IMG/VR virus record: IMGVR_UViG_2548876945_000002
Length of the DNA: 17,117 bases
DNA from: a virus
Lineage: Duplodnaviria > Heunggongvirae > Uroviricota > Caudoviricetes
Strand: one strand, 5' to 3'
Below, piece by piece: positions 4,502 through 15,357 of the stretch. The stretch's first letter is position 1. The number at the start of each line of letters is the position of its first letter. The translations under genes and the position numbers were made by a program. Under the pieces are notes generated by a model. That model worked only from the letters and a program-made list of their open reading frames with translations, was not told the DNA's origin and searched no databases.

Positions 4502-4680
4502 CTTGTTTTCCTCGCACGATGTCTTAGCCACCGGATATCCCACAGATGAGCCGCGTAGTTGAAGGTTTTTACGTCAGATTCTTTTGGGATTAGCTTGCGT
4601 TTATTTCTGGAACGCTTCGTTGGAAGGTATTTGCAGTTTTCGCAGATGATGTCGGTGATACTTCGTCGCTGTCGTCTCAT
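4498..4680 (-). CDS. ninE: NinE, 60 aa
   Basis: From the internal ATG at 4680..4678 the translation [60 protein letters not shown] matches lambda NinE. ATGA overlap with the methyltransferase stop. Confidence 0.8.
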
Positions 4681-5204
4681 GCCGCCCTCCTGACGCCCTG
4701 CCCGATCGCCATCAATGCCGCTTTGGATACGGTAGTAAACATCCGTCGAGGACTGATGAACGGTCGCCAAATCAGCAGCATGGAGCCTTTGCTGTTTCCC
4801 TTCTTCTCCAGCCCTGTCGATGGTTCGATAAAATTAATCCGTCCATCAGTGATAATGCGAACTTCGTCAACACTCTCCAGAGCCTTGCTGAACCATCCGA
4901 CTGACATATCCTCTGGCACAAGCATAACTACCGTCTGTCGCTGTTGTATGCACTGCTCAGCGGCTTTTTCCACCCACGGCCTGATATTGCTGTGCGGTGG
5001 GTTATTCCAGATTGCACCGTGGCTTACCCACTCAGAATTGAGCGCGTCGTCGGCCTCAGTTAGCCAGTGAGCACACAGAGCATTTTTGTCGCTCGCTGCC
5101 GAATCCAGCCAGAATCCAAACTCAATATCCAGTGCATCAAAAAGCCAAAGCGGCGTTTGCCAGCAGTCCTTGTCGTGTGCTGGCGTATTTGATTTGATAG
5201 TCAT
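4677..5204 (-). CDS. Phage-type DNA N6-adenine methyltransferase (Dam family), about 175 aa
   Basis: Translation [25 protein letters not shown]...[16 protein letters not shown] carries an NPP(H/Y)-type motif typical of N6-adenine methyltransferases. Preferred start is the ATG at 5204..5202, which overlaps the HNH stop as ATGA; the ORF-track start is 5222. Confidence 0.7.
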
Positions 5205-5803
5205 GCAGCCCGATCTCCCCATCTCGCTTTCATTGTTTCATTTGCAAATCGCCAGAATCTTCCTTTGTGATATGAGCTTTCGCCATTACAGCAACGACTA
5301 ATTGACGAACTATCAAATCCTTCTCTGACAGCATCCATAGCTGCTTCATAATAAACCTCCTCCCCAGTTTTCATGTCAGTAGAAATAACAGCTTTACTGG
5401 CAGGATGATCACCACTAAATTTACCTAGCGATATAGGTATTCTTCCATTTTGTTTATATCCGTGCTTTGAGTTTTCAGAATGTGATACCCATTCAAGGTT
5501 TTCAGCCCTATTGTCATCTCTTTGCCCATTTTTGTGATTAACTACCAAGCCATCACAGAACCCTGTACAGAATGCTTTCGCAACTATCCTGTGGGCGCTG
5601 TATTTCTTACCGTATACCTTTATTTGAAGATATCCTGTCGACTTGCACTTGAATGGTTTTACGCTAGTGCCATTAATTATTTTCTTATATGGCCTCTGTC
5701 TAGTTGATGTTACTGTAATTTCCCTCGTAATAGACCTGAAATTTCCTTTATTGCTAACCTGATAAAATGGAATTCCTTCGATATCTACCCAAACCTCAAT
5801 CAT
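5201..5803 (-). CDS. HNH homing-type endonuclease (NUMOD4-like N-terminus, HNH core, C-terminal DNA-binding module), 200 aa
   Basis: N-terminal WVDIEGIPFYQVSNKGNFRS, HNH core NHKNGQRDDNRAENLEWVSHSENSKHG, C-terminal SISRCCNGESSYHKGRFWRFA. The region is AT-rich relative to its flanks. A GGAGG Shine-Dalgarno lies inside the ninB 3' end. The last codons encode KARWGDRAA (see findings). Confidence 0.8.
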   Translation of the reverse strand: MIEVWVDIEGIPFYQVSNKGNFRSITREITVTSTRQRPYKKIINGTSVKPFKCKSTGYLQIKVYGKKYSAHRIVAKAFCTGFCDGLVVNHKNGQRDDNRAENLEWVSHSENSKHGYKQNGRIPISLGKFSGDHPASKAVISTDMKTGEEVYYEAAMDAVREGFDSSSISRCCNGESSYHKGRFWRFANETMKARWGDRAA

Positions 5804-6212
5804 AATTCCTCCATTCGCTAAGATGAATTGAGTTCATGGCACAATATGCTTCTATGTAGTCCATTATTTCGGATATTTTTTTTACAGAGAGAGTCGCCGT
5901 ACTCTCTCTGATGTTTATTAGCTCACCTTCTAACCCTGATATAATCTCAGGGTGCTGGTTGGTTGCAATCTGCCAACCAGAAACGAATAACCCCTTCCAA
6001 AACTCAATATTTCTTGCTTTTCCATGATATGTAGCCTTCTTACTTATTTCAGATAGCATCGCGTGAAGGCGTGCATTTTGCCGAATGCTGCGGTTGCGTT
6101 CCTGAATGGTTACTACGATTGGTTTGGTTGGGTCTGGAAGGATTTGCTGGATAGCTTGAATGGCGTTCTGCTGATGTGCTGGAGATCGAATTTCAAAGGT
6201 TAGTTTTTTCAT
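5796..6212 (-). CDS. ninB: NinB (Orf-family recombination mediator), about 138 aa
   Basis: From ATG at 6212..6210: MKKLTFEIRSPAHQQNAIQAIQQILPDPTKPIVVTIQERNRS is nearly identical to the lambda NinB N-terminus. The rest is divergent but alignable with lambda NinB. Confidence 0.85.
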   Translation of the reverse strand: MKKLTFEIRSPAHQQNAIQAIQQILPDPTKPIVVTIQERNRSIRQNARLHAMLSEISKKATYHGKARNIEFWKGLFVSGWQIATNQHPEIISGLEGELINIRESTATLSVKKISEIMDYIEAYCAMNSIHLSEWRNYD

Positions 6213-6230: not shown

Positions 6231-6260
6231 ATAAAAAGGCCTGCGATTACCAGCAGGCCT
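6231..6260 (-). terminator. Intrinsic terminator between the primase-helicase gene and ninB (tR2-like position)
   Basis: Perfect 8-bp inverted repeat AGGCCTGC / GCAGGCCT with an 8-nt loop (6237..6260), followed on the minus strand by TTTTTAT (6236..6231). Confidence 0.7.
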
Positions 6261-6289: not shown

Positions 6290-8170
6290 TTAATACTCCG
6301 TCACGTTTTCCTGTCGCCACGCCTCGTCATATTCCGATTTCGGCATATTGGCGATGTAGCTATATGGCGATCCTGATTCAAGTTGCAGGAACTGGTGCGA
6401 TTGCTCATCAAGGAACAACGGGACACCACCTTCCCAACCTTCGCCGTTACGTTGTTTTTCAAGCATCAAAACAGATGCCGGAGATGCCAGTAGCTGTTCG
6501 TCCTTCTCTGACATCTTTTCACCACTCTGAACTCTCTGTAACGCTCTCTCGCGAGCCTTGTTACGCCAGATGATGAAAAGATTGTCTGTCAGGTCTGTTA
6601 TCGCTCCAGAGCCTTTTACGTCCATTTTCCCGGTTGGTTTTTCTTCGCTGTCACCTTTTCGCGAGTGAGTAACGAGAATGACGTGGGAGTTTGTTTTGTT
6701 TTTGAAATCGCAAATCGAGTCAACAAACGCCTTCTGCCCGTTATAGTCATCGTCGCCTATGCCACATTTCATCAGGCTGTCGATGATGAATAACTGGATG
6801 CCGTATCGGCGGCGAGCGTAGTCGAATATTTCGATCAGCCTGTCGGCTTTCGCCGTTCCGGTCAGGCCAAACACCCAAAGTCTTTCGTCATAAAATTTAA
6901 ATGCAGAGTCAATTTCCAGCACTGGCGGCATCTTGCAGCACGTCGCCTGACGGGTAAGTCGCTTAAGGAGAATGCCTGGCTTCAGCTCAAGTGACGCGAT
7001 GCACGTCTTCACACCCTGACGCATTGCCTCAAGTGCCATATGCCCGACAACCTCCGTTTTTCCGTGACCGTTCACACCATTGACCAGCGTCAACTCGGCC
7101 TCACGGAACTGGAATTTATCTGCCAGAGATTCCCATGGTGGATTAAACAGATACTGCTGCTTGCCGTAGAAAGCGTTGATTGTGTCCTGGTAAAACTCTC
7201 GCGCGCTGTAGAGTTCTTCAGGATCGAAGTAGGATGCCGTGCCGATGTACTGCCAGATTTCATCCTCGGTAACACCGTTCATCAGGCATTCGTTGATGTC
7301 TTTGTACGGCAGAGTAACAAGACGGCAACGATGTTCACCGAGTCGGCTTGCGATTTCCCTTGCGGCTTCACGACCAACATCATCAACATCCATCGAGATG
7401 AATATTTCCTCAAACCTGTCGAGGTTGTGATACTCAAACTCAATCCACTGTTGCTTAGCGCCTTTCCCGCCACCAAACGGCACGGATAACGCCGAGATGC
7501 CGTATTGCGCATAGCTCATACAATCAATTTCGCCTTCGCAAAGTACAACCGCCCTCACGCCAGCGTCCAGAGCCTGCCATCCGAACAGACAAGGTTCGCA
7601 ATCACCTTCTGCCATAATGACTTTCTTCCCGTCCGGGCGCTCAGTGCTGATTCGCTTGACCTGCAACAACTCACCATCGCGTTTGTACGGAAGCACCAGA
7701 GCATCCAGTTCTCGTTCTCCATTCCACACCTTTCCGCTGACAACCTCGTAGCGCTTTACGACTTCTGGCGATATGCCACGCGATTGCAGGTACTCAAGAT
7801 GGGATTCTGTTCTGGTAACGTAGCGGGCGATTTTCTTGCGATCAGGTCTGGAGAATTTCTTCTCACGTTTGGCATCGAAATGGTGATCGTCATCCTTGAT
7901 ACCGAGAAATGCTTTCGCTTCCTGCATAGCCTGATGCAGGTTAATTCCACGACATGCCATCCACAAATCAAGCATGTCACCGCCGTCTCCCTCAGCGAAA
8001 TCAGCCCATTTTTTCTTGCCGCTAAGGTTGACCTTAAGGCTGTTTCCCTTGTCACCGTTGACGTTACCGGCAACCCACTCATGCCCCTCTTTCTTGCCGT
8101 TTGGCAACAGGTGCGGAGCCACCCTGTCAACCTGCGCCCAAAGCAGGTTGCTAAGTTCACTTGGCCTCAT
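6290..8170 (-). CDS. Replicative DNA primase-helicase fusion (TOPRIM primase domain plus DnaB/RecA-fold helicase domain), 626 aa
   Basis: Central TOPRIM-like segment (VVLCEGEIDCMSYAQYGISALSVPFGGG) and C-terminal Walker A (LVNGVNGHGKTE) and Walker B-like (LFIIDSL) motifs. It occupies the position of lambda P. ATG start confirmed at 8170..8168. Confidence 0.8.
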   Translation of the reverse strand: MRPSELSNLLWAQVDRVAPHLLPNGKKEGHEWVAGNVNGDKGNSLKVNLSGKKKWADFAEGDGGDMLDLWMACRGINLHQAMQEAKAFLGIKDDDHHFDAKREKKFSRPDRKKIARYVTRTESHLEYLQSRGISPEVVKRYEVVSGKVWNGERELDALVLPYKRDGELLQVKRISTERPDGKKVIMAEGDCEPCLFGWQALDAGVRAVVLCEGEIDCMSYAQYGISALSVPFGGGKGAKQQWIEFEYHNLDRFEEIFISMDVDDVGREAAREIASRLGEHRCRLVTLPYKDINECLMNGVTEDEIWQYIGTASYFDPEELYSAREFYQDTINAFYGKQQYLFNPPWESLADKFQFREAELTLVNGVNGHGKTEVVGHMALEAMRQGVKTCIASLELKPGILLKRLTRQATCCKMPPVLEIDSAFKFYDERLWVFGLTGTAKADRLIEIFDYARRRYGIQLFIIDSLMKCGIGDDDYNGQKAFVDSICDFKNKTNSHVILVTHSRKGDSEEKPTGKMDVKGSGAITDLTDNLFIIWRNKARERALQRVQSGEKMSEKDEQLLASPASVLMLEKQRNGEGWEGGVPLFLDEQSHQFLQLESGSPYSYIANMPKSEYDEAWRQENVTEY

Positions 8171-10665: not shown

Positions 10666-10933
10666 CTTCATCGTCACATAGCTGGTAACCAGTGGCCTGA
10701 AGAGACGTTTGGGTGATGTGATAGAGATCATTATTCAATTCGATTGAGAAAAATCATCATAAGGTTTATATCCATTTATTAGATTTTATGTGTATAAATA
10801 GTTAAAAATGCACGATGTAGAGATATTTGTGCTTAACATCAATTAATCATTGCTAAATCGTGCTTATTGTTCAGAAATCGCCCAAGTCATATTGAAAATC
10901 TGTTGGCGAACACCTATATAAGGAGTATAGTTA

Positions 10934-11296
10934 GTGACCCAAAACGTATTGCCAATCAACAAGAGCTTGCATGACCGAGCTGTTGATGAATTTAATCGTC
11001 TGCATGGAACAATGATTGGCGAGATTAGTGCAATGCTGAAAACAGCTAAAGTAGCGCCATTGGTGGATCTTCGTAAGAAAGATCCTACCTTTTCGAACGT
11101 TGTCGCAGAATTACGGACATTCAGAGACGTATGTAATGCTCTGCTCCCATACTTTCGTGTAGATAAGACCAGCGAAATCGCTGTCATCGATAAGTTACTT
11201 ATACTGGCTAATGACCTGGCTCAAGCCATCGATGCTGACGATCCTGACGCATTGTGCGCAGCAATAGCAGCCCTTGATGTTGAGCCTTACATTTAA
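10934..11296 (+). CDS. Hypothetical protein (120 aa) in the cI-to-pL accessory slot
   Basis: GTG start at 10934 with AAGGAG 8 nt upstream. Preceded by about 270 bp of AT-rich non-coding DNA containing promoter-like hexamers. Predicted soluble and helical. I do not recognise the sequence. Confidence 0.6.
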   Translation: MTQNVLPINKSLHDRAVDEFNRLHGTMIGEISAMLKTAKVAPLVDLRKKDPTFSNVVAELRTFRDVCNALLPYFRVDKTSEIAVIDKLLILANDLAQAIDADDPDALCAAIAALDVEPYI

Positions 11297-12525: not shown

Positions 12526-13383
12526 ATGCCAGGATTTACAAGTAAATTCATACCAAGAAGAGAATTCAAGCATAATCCAGAAAGACTAAATGTTATTTCT
12601 TCCGGTGGTGGGACTCAAAGTAACGCAATAATCTGCTTAGTACATGCTGGCGTTCTTCCAAAGCCTGACATTATCGTTATGTCAGATACAGAACGTGAGG
12701 CAAGTAATGTATTTGAATATCAGAAAAAATATATAGCTCCTATTTGTGAAGATATGGGTGTTGATTACCTGATTGTTCCTAAAAGTAGATTTGCTACCTA
12801 CGACATTGATGGGCCTGATCCAGACGTTCCTCTACCTGGATATTTCACAGAATACGAGGGAAGGGATTCAAAAGGAATGTGCGCTGGAAAGCAACCAGCA
12901 TTTTGTTCTATAAAGTGGAAAACTGAAGTTATTCAGAGATTTTTAAATGAAAGATATGGAGAGAAGTATCTCACAGCAAGAGGAGTGGATAGTTGGATGG
13001 GGATAAGCATTGAAGAGGCTACACGAAGAGCGAAATACCCAACTGGCAAGTGGCAGAGGCGCTATCCACTTATTGAAATGCTAATGACTAAACAGATGGC
13101 AATTCAATGTGTCGAGGATTATGGTCTTCCTACACCACCTGCCTCGCTTTGCTGGATGTGCCCTAACAGAGATGATGATCTGTGGCTTTATATGAAAAAT
13201 AACGTCCCATCTGATTTTGAAAGAGCATGTCAGCATGAAAAAGAGATACAAATGAAGTGGCCTCATTTGTGGCTTACTAAATATGGTGTTCCACTATCTG
13301 AGGCACCACTAACACCTAGTGGTGGTAAAAATGCACAAATGGATCTTATACAATTCTGCGATTCTGGACTGTGCTTCGTTTAA
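12526..13383 (+). CDS. PAPS-reductase-like / PP-loop superfamily protein (DndC-like or NinC-like fold), 285 aa
   Basis: N-terminal VISSGGGTQSNAI resembles a degenerate SGGxDS PP-loop; C-terminal CWMCPNRDDD is a CxxC element. The gene is clearly AT-rich relative to N and recT. Superfamily call is by motif only. Confidence 0.55.
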   Translation: MPGFTSKFIPRREFKHNPERLNVISSGGGTQSNAIICLVHAGVLPKPDIIVMSDTEREASNVFEYQKKYIAPICEDMGVDYLIVPKSRFATYDIDGPDPDVPLPGYFTEYEGRDSKGMCAGKQPAFCSIKWKTEVIQRFLNERYGEKYLTARGVDSWMGISIEEATRRAKYPTGKWQRRYPLIEMLMTKQMAIQCVEDYGLPTPPASLCWMCPNRDDDLWLYMKNNVPSDFERACQHEKEIQMKWPHLWLTKYGVPLSEAPLTPSGGKNAQMDLIQFCDSGLCFV

Positions 13384-13545: not shown

Positions 13546-13663
13546 GCATAAACAACAGAATAAACACTGCACTGTGTATTCATTCCAACGAGTGAATACA
13601 CGGAGCAATGTCGCTCGTAACCAAACAGGAGCCGACTTGTTCTGATTATTGGAAATCTTCTTT

Positions 13664-13690
13664 GCCCTCCAATGTGAGGGCAATTTTTTT
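13664..13690 (+). terminator. Intrinsic terminator just upstream of the coiled-coil gene
   Basis: GCCCTC-CAATGT-GAGGGC hairpin followed by AATTTTTTT. It falls inside the ORF-track N-terminal extension of the next gene, so that gene more likely starts at 13703. Confidence 0.65.
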
Positions 13691-13702
13691 GACGGAGGAT
13701 AT

Positions 13703-14671
13703 ATGAGTGAAGTAACAGATTTAGTTGTTATTGAAAAAGCAAATGCAATGACTGTATTTCAGTCTGCCGACCAGATTGAAGAAATTCTCCAAAAGGTTGA
13801 ACGTGAAGTTATGTCCTTTGTGCCTGATATCACAACGGCAAAGGGCAGAAAGGAGATCGCTTCTCTGGCGTATAAAGTTGCGCAGACGAAAACATATCTC
13901 GATGGTCTTGGCAAAGACCTTGTTGCTGAACTGAAGGAAATTCCAAAGCTAATTGATGCCAACCGCAAAACAGTGCGCGATCGCCTTGATGAACTGAAAG
14001 CCAAGGCGCGCCAGCCTCTTACTGATTATGAGGAAGAACAGGCGCGGATTAAAGCCGAAGAAGAAGCTAAGGCAGCAGCTGAAGCTCTCGCAAAGCAAAT
14101 TGAGTCTGACCATGAAATAGCGATTTTGATGGATCGCGAATTTGACCGCCAAAGAGAAGAGGCAAGACTCAAAGCGGAGCAGGAAAAGCGAGAGCATGAA
14201 GAGCGCTTAAAAAGAGAAGCTGAAGAGAAAGCCAGAGCTGAAGCCGAAGCAAAGGCAAAAGCCGAAATTGAAGCAGCAGCAAGGCGAGAAGCAGAAGCTA
14301 AGGCAGCAGCGGAACGTGCAGAGCGTGAACGTATTGAAGCCGAGCAACGAGCACAGCGCGAAGCAAAAGAGGCAGCAGAACGAGCTGAAAGAGAAAAGCA
14401 GGCAGCGATTGAAGCAGAACGCAGAAAAGCACAGGAGGAGGCTGAACGAATCCGTCGCGAGGCTGAAGCAAAAGAGCAAGCCAGAATAGCAGAAGAAAAA
14501 AGAATCAAGGACGAAGAAGAGCGTAGAGCAAAGGATAAAGCTCACCGGAAAGAAGTAAATAACAAAATACTTGCTGACCTTATCAAGGTTGGAGCATCAG
14601 AAGATGTTGCTAAAAATATCATAACAGCCATCGTAAAAGGCGAAGTATTCGCAACAAAAATAACCTACTAA
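13703..14671 (+). CDS. Hypothetical protein with a long charged ER/K-rich alpha-helical (coiled-coil or single-helix) domain, about 322 aa
   Basis: Start ATG at 13703 with GGAGG 4 nt upstream. About 120-residue N-terminal domain, about 170 residues of EAEAKAKAE / REAEEKARAE-type repeats, then a short C-terminal segment. TolA-like in composition only. Confidence 0.7.
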   Translation: MSEVTDLVVIEKANAMTVFQSADQIEEILQKVEREVMSFVPDITTAKGRKEIASLAYKVAQTKTYLDGLGKDLVAELKEIPKLIDANRKTVRDRLDELKAKARQPLTDYEEEQARIKAEEEAKAAAEALAKQIESDHEIAILMDREFDRQREEARLKAEQEKREHEERLKREAEEKARAEAEAKAKAEIEAAARREAEAKAAAERAERERIEAEQRAQREAKEAAERAEREKQAAIEAERRKAQEEAERIRREAEAKEQARIAEEKRIKDEEERRAKDKAHRKEVNNKILADLIKVGASEDVAKNIITAIVKGEVFATKITY

Positions 14672-14964: not shown

Positions 14965-15068
14965 GTTTTACAGATAACTGGTCAGACGAAGAATTCATTC
15001 GTCAGATGAACAAAATGCTCAATCAGCACAAAGAACAGGAGAAAGATGATGATTCTGACTCTGAATGA
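14961..15068 (+). CDS. Small acidic ORF (35 aa)
   Basis: MSFTDNWSDEEFIRQMNKMLNQHKEQEKDDDSDSE. Overlaps the start of the following 103-aa gene. Confidence 0.25.
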   Translation: MSFTDNWSDEEFIRQMNKMLNQHKEQEKDDDSDSE

Positions 15069-15357
15069 TAAGCGTGAAATATCGCAAATTATCGCAAGTT
15101 TTACTGATGAAGATTACGAACGAATCAACAGTGAAGTTGATCGCCTCTGCAAACGTTGCGACCCAATAAGCGAAATGCTTCGCTCATATAAACCAGATGA
15201 ACATACTAAGGATGCTATCGACTGGCTGGAAGATGATGATTGTAACTATCAGGAAAAAGCCGCTGAATGGTTCTGGGATGCAATAACCGAAAGAGTTAAG
15301 GCTGAATATGCCTTCGCAATATTCAAACGCAGACACATTTTTGGAGAAGCTGCATGA
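15046..15357 (+). CDS. Hypothetical protein (103 aa), translationally coupled to recT
   Basis: MMILTLNDKREISQIIASFTDEDYERINSEVDRLCKRCDPISEMLRSYKPDE.... AGGAGA upstream. Its stop overlaps the recT ATG as ATGA. Not recognised. Confidence 0.55.
   Translation: MMILTLNDKREISQIIASFTDEDYERINSEVDRLCKRCDPISEMLRSYKPDEHTKDAIDWLEDDDCNYQEKAAEWFWDAITERVKAEYAFAIFKRRHIFGEAA

Follow-up and report, generated by a model that had tools for sequence, protein, structure and literature searches.

How does the gene of an HNH endonuclease come to end, in frame, in the last codons of a neighbouring recombination gene? The question is raised by IMG/VR record IMGVR_UViG_2548876945_000002 (Caudoviricetes), a stretch of 17,117 nucleotides (nt), hereafter the window, which is the early region of a lambdoid prophage. 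All genes at the locus under study lie on the minus strand, where ninB is followed by the open reading frame (ORF) of the HNH protein and then by dam, encoding a phage N6-adenine methyltransferase. An earlier note on this DNA had read the end of the HNH ORF as the C-terminus of lambda NinB and had supposed that the endonuclease gene entered the 3' end of ninB, leaving the tail of the latter behind. We find that the tail is a genuine ninB remnant in frame with the HNH ORF, but that the locus differs from endonuclease-free alleles by a block of two genes and not by the HNH gene alone. Our preferred reading, to which we assign a probability of roughly 0.6, is that a free-standing homing-type HNH gene and a linked, divergent ninB allele have been spreading together into lambda-type ninB by break-induced or break-like recombination. 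The homology would be provided by the 126 nt at the 5' end of ninB and by the 28-nt tail with the downstream gene, the tail being kept for translational coupling.

Anatomy of the block and its joints

The features on which the analysis is built are the following, with positions counted from the first letter of the window.

6212..5796, minus strand: ninB, 138 residues (Pfam NinB, E 9.6e-41)
6087..6212, minus strand: lambda-type 5' part of ninB, codons 1-42; 120/126 nt as in lambda/434, with homology extending upstream
6150..6168, minus strand: P27-type patch, ninB nt 45-63 (Q19, I21), from an alignment of 14 alleles
5232..6086, minus strand: 855-nt block replacing 284 nt of lambda-type ninB, with breakpoints against 434, HK97 and lambda
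5796..6086, minus strand: divergent ninB body, codons 43-138 and stop, forming the left part of the block
5803..5201, minus strand: HNH ORF, 200 residues (Pfam NUMOD4, E 1.5e-13; HNH_3, E 8.2e-12, residues 69-112)
5231..5803, minus strand: HNH core, codons 1-191, with NUMOD4, HNH_3 and an I-HmuI-type C-terminal NUMOD-like domain (Pfam, phmmer, AlphaFold/Foldseek)
5808..5812, minus strand: GGAGG ribosome-binding site of the HNH gene, read within the ninB 3' end; the P27 GenBank record annotates one at the equivalent place
5204..5230, minus strand: remnant K138-A146 (KARWGDRAA) of lambda-type ninB, read as the HNH C-terminus; the peptide is that of the lambda/434 ninB 3' end
5215..5220, minus strand: GGGGAG ribosome-binding site of dam, read within the ninB remnant 10 nt ahead of the ATG of dam; in the P27 GenBank record the dam site is annotated at the equivalent place
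5201..5204, minus strand: ATGA shared by the dam start and the HNH stop, the latter having once been that of ninB (sequence read)
5204..4677, minus strand: dam, the right flank common with endonuclease-free phages (Pfam Dam, E 1.2e-63; near-identical to 434/HK97 dam)

The translation of the lambda reference (NC_001416, ninB at 40644..41084) does end in KARWGDRAA, as the earlier note had stated, and at the DNA level the last 28 nt of the HNH ORF with its TGA (5231..5201) agree with the ninB 3' end at 29/31 positions in lambda and at 30/31 in 434 and HK97. Also the lambda-like N-terminus of NinB, which had been described as diverging after some 41 residues, is borne out, with the shared part measuring 42 codons and carrying two amino-acid changes with respect to lambda/434 (H19Q and V21I). 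The last base in common with the empty allele is window position 6087, after which similarity collapses abruptly; identity returns at 5231, 28 nt before the TGA, and in the comparison with 434 and HK97 it runs on into dam. The joints at 6087/6086 and 5232/5231 are therefore the two that had been expected, but they are 855 nt apart rather than within 600 bp, and the stretch that they enclose contains ninB codons 43-138 in addition to the HNH gene. These breakpoints come from anchored ungapped comparisons, MAFFT having misplaced the short lambda/434 tail in the multi-sequence DNA alignment.

What is left of the resident lambda-type ninB is thus its first 126 nt and its last 28 nt, while the place of codons 43-137 is taken by a block made of divergent ninB codons 43-138 and HNH codons 1-191. 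The AT-richness noted earlier for the HNH gene holds (38.3% GC in the HNH core, as compared with 50-52% in the flanking genes) and extends to the divergent part of ninB (39.5%), the replaced lambda-type segment having 51.8% GC. A third crossover is found inside the 5' part of ninB, between nt 37 and 44 (window 6176..6169): this end of the gene is itself recombinant, being lambda-like over nt 1-43 and P27-like over nt 45-63, a combination absent from 17 other copies of the cassette.

Endonuclease-free alleles of the same junction, for which the earlier note had proposed a search, exist in several phages: the gene that directly follows lambda-type ninB is dam in 434 and HK97, ninC in lambda and ninD in P22, and presence and absence of the block therefore alternate at one site among otherwise homologous genomes. 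In endonuclease-free phages the same ATGA links lambda-type ninB to dam, ninC, ninD or ninE. In the window, ninB, the HNH ORF and dam are translationally chained by overlapping stops and starts. The ninB stop and the HNH start share 8 nt (ATGATTGA), the last ninB codons (W R N Y D and stop) overlap the ribosome-binding site and start of the HNH gene, and the HNH stop overlaps the ATG of the next gene, which is dam, in the ATGA that had already been recognised (5204..5201).

The endonuclease, its linked ninB allele and the tail

As judged from its sequence, its domains and its modelled fold, the HNH protein is a putative endonuclease of the I-HmuI-type HNH family. Indeed, I-HmuI (PDB 1U3E) is the only PDB match, by sequence (phmmer E 4.7e-14, query residues 55-186) and by fold. 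The AlphaFold model, made with 50 homologues and having a mean predicted local distance difference test score (pLDDT) of 92.9, retrieves 1U3E as the sole significant Foldseek match (E 2.3e-13 over 190 columns, no other being below 0.1); the Pfam I-HmuI_NUMOD-like profile gives a weak match (E 8.5e-4, below the Pfam cut-off). Residues H71, H90, N92, D97, N98, N102 and N111 of the HNH motif are invariant in 50 homologues, and the ORF is intact in 17 of the 18 copies sampled. The exception is Escherichia coli O103:H2 strain 12009, where a nonsense change (G162*) marks a decayed copy (L104 1484-1969); frameshifted or truncated variants of 130-191 residues are also seen in other E. coli (proteins P0004-P0006 and P0054). 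We take the gene to be free-standing, since no intron was detected (no group I or II intron or other RNA family reaches the Rfam threshold anywhere in the window) and since it is provided with a GGAGG and an ATG of its own and overlaps the stop of ninB. It is probably the gene of a selfish DNA-cutting enzyme.

The upstream gene is predicted to be a complete member of the NinB/Orf recombination mediator family (PF05772), the profile being matched over its full length (residues 3-130 of the whole ORF on model positions 2-129 of 131). At 138 residues the protein has no equivalent of the last ~13 residues of lambda Orf, which include W137 and W141. Beyond the joint the ninB body has no detectable DNA similarity to lambda-type ninB, and about one third of the protein residues are shared. 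A divergent ninB body without the endonuclease was not found in phage records, in E. coli genomes or in a collection of 5.8 billion proteins, the last consisting of clustered data that lack genomic context for most hits. All relatives of this ninB with at least 70% identity in the protein collection end in a short ..x-Y-D/E motif, the HNH-junction motif imposed by the HNH start region, and in the one context looked up among them, from Salmonella Newport, a 200-residue HNH protein adjoins. As separate observations, a 10-bp perfect inverted repeat (CAGAGAGAGT...ACTCTCTCTG) lies within the divergent ninB coding sequence (window 5885-5910) and was flagged by the terminator scan on the plus, antisense strand; an excess of promoters was looked for in the 855-nt block and none was found.

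The block is inherited as a unit across many phage backgrounds. It occurs in 77 of 5426 complete E. coli genomes (80 places), is essentially full length in 77/77 carriers at 98.6-100% identity, and is never split; among phage records, a ninB body of at least 85% identity never occurs away from the HNH gene (63 E. coli/Stx-type records and SEN22), the two parts of the block being together in 65/65 records. The empty lambda-type ninB body is present in 1293 E. coli genomes, at ~1500 places, and outnumbers occupied sites by ~19:1. We have also compared the proportions of synonymous (pS) and nonsynonymous (pN) differences from the copy in Salmonella phage SEN22, obtaining a pS of 0.78 and a pN of 0.13 for the HNH gene and a pS of 0.75 and a pN of 0.075 for ninB codons 43-138. 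The saturated pS in both parts, together with the low pN, indicates that the two genes have long diverged together under purifying selection. The pS of ninB codons 1-42 is 0.14, which points to a recent and separate history of the 5' part. Equal AT-richness, saturation of pS in both parts and the fact that the two are never found apart thus point to the two-gene block, and not to the HNH gene alone, as the unit that is inherited.

A distinct history of block and flanks is also evident from the sites that are polymorphic among 18 copies.

ninB nt 1-126: 24% of sites polymorphic
Block, ninB part: 2.1%
Block, HNH part: 4.2%
27-nt tail: 33%

The block is about 10 times less polymorphic than either flank, and the step falls within a few nt of both edges. 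The joint between HNH gene and tail is at the same nucleotide in all 18 copies, and yet the gene that follows may be dam, ninC, ninE or ninD and the upstream module may be ren, a toprim primase/helicase, a DnaB-type helicase or unrelated small ORFs; endonuclease-free lambda-type ninB precedes the same set of genes as block-bearing ninB. The 27-nt tail itself has 11 haplotypes, which follow the downstream gene and equal those of endonuclease-free alleles in the same setting: the lambda tail occurs unchanged in ET776 before ninC, and the 434 tail likewise in P27 and SC407 before dam. The diversity of the flanks and the local tail haplotypes indicate that the flanks are the recipient phages' own, right up to the edges of the block. 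Such a pattern would be expected from break repair at the insertion site and would be harder, though possible, to obtain from crossovers over long flanking homology.

These data bear directly on a rival explanation, which is that of ordinary lambdoid mosaicism. The block would then be an exchangeable module moved between co-resident prophages by general or Red/RecT-type recombination, and the endonuclease would have no part in its spread, having instead another role (attacking competing phages, DNA processing) or being idle cargo. In agreement with this, the nin region is highly mosaic in all phages compared, with different genes on both sides of ninB whether the cassette is present or not, and the window encodes a RecT-family recombinase. 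The perfect linkage of ninB body and HNH gene is also what adjacent segments without a homologous partner would show, and the cassette occupies only ~5% of lambda-type ninB sites. Contrary to this explanation, polymorphism jumps about tenfold within a few nt of both edges, and the tail haplotypes are those of the local endonuclease-free allele as near as 7 nt from the joint, which is easier to account for if exchange starts at the joint. Moreover, in architecture and fold the protein is a complete counterpart of a proven homing enzyme, its catalytic columns being intact and under purifying selection, and in many genera its relatives occupy the same position after ninB alleles that differ widely, the joint to the ninB tail being an independent one in each case. 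On balance we regard mosaicism without a role of the nuclease as rather unlikely, although not to be dismissed lightly.

As for the nine-residue tail, the peptide is probably a passenger on the enzyme, as suggested by low model confidence and an excess of amino-acid replacements. The homologous core stops at residue 186, and I-HmuI continues only 4 residues past the matching position. Confidence of the AlphaFold model is lowest at the tail (mean pLDDT 62 over the last 10 residues), and the 18 copies have 4 amino-acid replacements in the 9 tail codons as compared with 8 in the 191 core codons, about 10 times as many per codon. In lambda Orf, residues K138-A146 belong to the C-terminal helix, which contributes to DNA binding (PMC4118853). 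A functional role for KARWGDRAA on the endonuclease was considered and appears unlikely, given the low model confidence and the changes that are tolerated (W195R, G196E and R198K/Q).

The remnant would instead have persisted for its GGGGAG ribosome-binding site and for the ATGA of the next gene. Lambda-type ninB has no intergenic space downstream, and for this reason a gene added behind it keeps the next gene expressed only if the joint lies upstream of that ribosome-binding site. In addition, termination of ribosomes at the ATGA requires an in-frame joint, which would explain the in-frame remnant without any function of the peptide.

Homologues, mode of spread and genomic setting

Contrary to the possibility that close homologues natively carry this tail, which the earlier note had named as grounds for abandoning its interpretation, the closest relatives of the enzyme (66-78% identity; Salmonella, Cronobacter and Yersinia) are 193-194 residues long and end in A[DN]E[RK]xAA. 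The nine-codon tail is thus specific to the 200-residue lineage of E. coli and Salmonella and is not native to the enzyme. In total, 196 protein clusters match at E<=1e-20, having in common a core that extends to ...HKGxxWRF, where they diverge. In SEN22, M191 is followed by GCCGCATGA, which is identical to the end of P22 ninB (its two final codons with the stop) and is all that is kept there of a P22-type ninB; the ninD after the joint is 99% identical to P22 ninD. More distant homologues have other NinB-like tails (..SDASRLEIEWATRWGKS; ..AFGTQRGVEWSPTSLGRAA; ..GTEHGVKWADEAKAA; ..RHGVQWSEPNPYE..). When tails of at least 6 residues were compared with NinB C-termini, 22/105 matched better than shuffled sequences at p<=0.02, with ~2 expected by chance; the test used 100 shuffles, and most of the 22 are at its floor of p=0.01. 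The NinB reference set is biased towards lambda, and 22/105 is therefore a lower bound. The NinB joints of these tails fall at differing NinB positions.

At eleven loci (Serratia, Trabulsiella, Klebsiella, Camelimonas, Mixta, Pantoea, Aeromonas and metagenomes), for which the context was taken from exact-protein look-ups, a NinB-family gene lies immediately upstream of the HNH gene with overlapping stop and start. NinB assignments at these loci rely on recorded Pfam hits for six, on alignment for others, and on source names for Mixta and Camelimonas. A profile search of genome contigs with the HNH alignment gave four close relatives (Serratia, Trabulsiella, Camelimonas and Mixta), the other 76 loci being distant NUMOD4/HNH genes. 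Several details of these loci are recorded here in their own right. The 143-residue upstream gene in Klebsiella and Trabulsiella (L092/L010) has no Pfam NinB hit on record and aligns with NinB (RS.PQN and WCAERGIKL motifs), being probably a distant, YbcN-like member of the Orf family. The Mixta sp. homologue (L012 3001-3372) ends after 123 codons, with a transposase-looking ORF just downstream in the ORF scan, which suggests that it was cut by an insertion sequence. On the contig that carries homologue P0071, a DnaB helicase gene a few genes downstream (L089 5041-5567) has a weak hit to the homing-endonuclease 'hint' domain on record, which suggests that this phage also carries an intein. Outside these loci, a ..WEAA tail is common to many of the homologues from Pseudomonas and may have been left by some other target gene.

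The same loci allow a second alternative to be weighed, in which the HNH ORF alone, with its ribosome-binding site, was put cleanly between W137 and K138 of ninB, the divergent body being the allele that was hit and the outer flanks having later been homogenised with lambda-type phages. The geometry is indeed nearly contiguous, the upstream NinB ending at about lambda residue 133 and the tail beginning at 138, and at all homologous loci the upstream NinB frame ends in or just after the HNH start, as it would if an ORF had been dropped into the gene. Also in its favour, the 8 bases CGAATGG|A occur before the HNH ribosome-binding site (window 5817..5810) and before the tail in the ninB of 434 and HK97. 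They may be the mark of a clean ancestral insertion point between W137 and K138 or a coincidence arising from TGGAGG, and as proof of a clean insertion site they were rejected: the TGG is part of the TGGAGG ribosome-binding site, the W codon possibly being due to that site and not to ninB, and in the Salmonella pair, SEN22 against P22, no more than 5 nt agree.

Furthermore, the tail is lambda-type in DNA and the adjoining ninB body is not, which means that the two do not form one allele today, and the closest homologues lack KARWGDR, the nine-codon tail looking derived in the E. coli lineage. Finally, there are several relatives in which one NinB segment is present twice, once in the upstream NinB and again, diverged, in the tail: at L089 the upstream gene ends in ..AWMTENVEVAA* and the tail is AFGTQRGVEWS..GRAA*, and L094 and L011 are alike. 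Such duplicated ends fit the overwriting of a resident ninB by a substitute ninB with its endonuclease, and simple insertion would not be expected to give them. We consider simple insertion to be improbable.

In our preferred reading of homing by a two-gene block, the endonuclease would cut or nick endonuclease-free lambda-type ninB, probably near the joint at codon 137/138, although this target site is a guess. The break would be repaired from a co-resident phage or prophage bearing the cassette, with homology in the conserved 5' end of ninB and in the 28-nt tail with the downstream gene, and the repair would copy in the endonuclease gene along with the linked ninB allele, which is presumably uncut. 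Only in-frame joints upstream of the remnant would retain the translational coupling of the nin operon.

A number of observations weigh against such a role of the nuclease. Lambdoid nin regions are mosaic anyway, and sharp module boundaries and swapped flanks arise without a nuclease too. An efficient drive would be expected to occupy more than the ~5% of lambda-type ninB sites that hold the cassette in complete E. coli genomes. The excess of tail diversity rests on 18 copies and 9 sites, and part of it could reflect relaxed constraint instead of recombination. A Pseudomonas aeruginosa homologue (L091, CP084890 2166-3094; 54% identical), in a nin-like region with NinG downstream, follows a 112-residue coiled-coil-looking protein without NinB similarity; it does not adjoin a NinB gene, and the family is thus not strictly tied to ninB. 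Finally, identities of the HNH protein and of the upstream NinB correlate across loci (r 0.60, Mantel p ~0.0006), a relation confounded by host relatedness and of little weight.

A wider version of the homing proposal, which we advance tentatively and hold to be possible rather than probable, is that the NUMOD4-HNH lineage is a specialised ninB/orf homing system. It would be a replacement cassette that brings a substitute, uncut ninB, uses the victim's 5' end and last codons as portable homology arms, and relies on the victim's tail for the stop of the enzyme and for the ribosome-binding site of the next gene. The ladder of tails would then reflect repeated independent invasions, and the cut would fall at or near lambda ninB codon 137/138 (lambda ~41054/41055).

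The setting of the locus is that of a lambdoid early region, with these further features.

Minus strand, from high to low coordinates (Pfam scans): cII; a helix-turn-helix replication initiator; toprim primase/helicase (8170..6293); ninB; the HNH gene; dam
Minus strand, after dam: NinE- and NinF-like ORFs (by eye), then (Pfam) KilAC antirepressor, YbcO, RusA, phosphatase, Q and holin
Plus strand: cI-like repressor; N; RecT module
6237..6260, minus strand: tR2-like intrinsic terminator hairpin directly upstream of ninB (terminator scan), the same as the lambda and 434 sequence upstream of ninB

This hairpin is the sole convincing terminator in the terminator scan. Five ORFs of 103-340 residues in the lysis and early-left regions (194-667, 10867-11187, 12526-13380, 13649-14668 and 15046-15354) have no Pfam match at E<=0.001. 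Other HNH genes were seen in nin regions, namely one of 203 residues in the interval between helicase gene and ninB of E. coli ETEC1722 (L100 415-1026) and one of 93 residues between ninF and rusA in SEN22 (L007 3030-3311); nin regions seem to collect HNH endonuclease genes.

Meaning and comparison with known systems

If the enzyme does home into lambda-type ninB, the locus would offer a natural and easily manipulated homing system in lambda-like phages, the best understood of temperate phages, with a defined candidate target (ninB codon 137/138) and with the empty alleles of lambda, 434 and HK97 ready to hand. It would also provide a concrete mechanism for some of the sharp mosaic joints of nin regions, including those of the Shiga-toxin phages P27 and 86. 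The nuclease gene adjoins a recombination mediator that could aid its spread. The nine-codon remnant illustrates how coupled operons limit where a selfish gene can settle, as the ribosome-binding site of the next gene and the stop/start overlap had to stay. Should the enzyme be inactive, the locus would be a well-resolved case of lambdoid mosaicism. In the Stx phages P27 and 86, as in E. coli genomes of RefSeq, the two genes already carry the annotations 'NinB' and 'HNH endonuclease / NUMOD4 domain-containing protein', and a literature search, within the library that it covered, found no published description of the cassette, its breakpoints or the ninB tails.

The nearest characterised enzyme is I-HmuI of Bacillus phage SPO1 (PDB 1U3E), an intron-encoded HNH nicking homing endonuclease. 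The order of domains is the same, with an N-terminal beta-rich DNA-binding region, the HNH core and a C-terminal helix-turn-helix-like NUMOD domain. However, I-HmuI sits in a group I intron of a DNA polymerase gene, whereas the ORF of the window is intronless and has ninB as its host gene. The two proteins are ~29% identical, and the one in the window, a putative endonuclease, has nine extra residues at its C-terminus that come from the target gene.

In its way of life the block would be closer to the free-standing homing endonucleases of T4-like phages (MobE, SegF, SegG and others), which practise intronless homing with co-conversion of flanking genes (PMC2790892, PMC2988022). Here too the gene has conserved genes as neighbours, standing between them or at their ends, varies in presence among otherwise homologous phages and is inherited with a neighbouring allele, in this case the ninB body. 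Unlike those systems, the setting is a temperate lambdoid prophage, the linked allele has about one third protein identity and thus differs by far more than a few protective polymorphisms, the endonuclease ORF continues into what is left of the replaced gene, and homing is the proposed rather than the established mode of spread. A comparable association is reported in an ICP1 study, where the gene of a putative homing nuclease is located at sharp boundaries of recombination between phage genomes that are otherwise alike (PMC10448857). It resembles the three breakpoints within ~1 kb and the tenfold step in diversity at both block edges, while phage group, nuclease family and host gene are all different.

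Endonuclease ORFs that landed in a gene and now lie within a fragment of it, or form an in-frame fusion with one, are known from FelixO1-like phages, where nrdD is interrupted by a homing endonuclease gene (PMC4837284), and from gene 31 of the P22-like phage epsilon34, where the N-terminus of eaE is fused in frame to an HNH endonuclease (PMC2629481). The window shares this feature, but its fragment is C-terminal and of nine codons, and a complete substitute ninB accompanies the endonuclease, for which reason no gene is left in pieces. In fact, the downstream piece amounts to nine fast-evolving and poorly modelled codons on the enzyme, and the upstream ORF matches the NinB profile completely.

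A different kind of association is provided by the DUF968 NinB/Orf-HNH fusions of Gram-positive phages, in which one polypeptide carries an N-terminal Orf-like domain and a C-terminal zinc-finger HNH (PMC4118853, PMC2034487). In both cases a NinB-family protein is associated with an HNH nuclease in a phage recombination region. In the window, by contrast, NinB and HNH are two ORFs in different frames with no DUF968 match in Pfam, the nuclease belongs to the NUMOD4/HNH_3 I-HmuI type, and the NinB part joined to it is limited to nine residues. Set beside these systems, the block is a candidate for a tidy homing-endonuclease footprint, of a kind that would not surprise a specialist.

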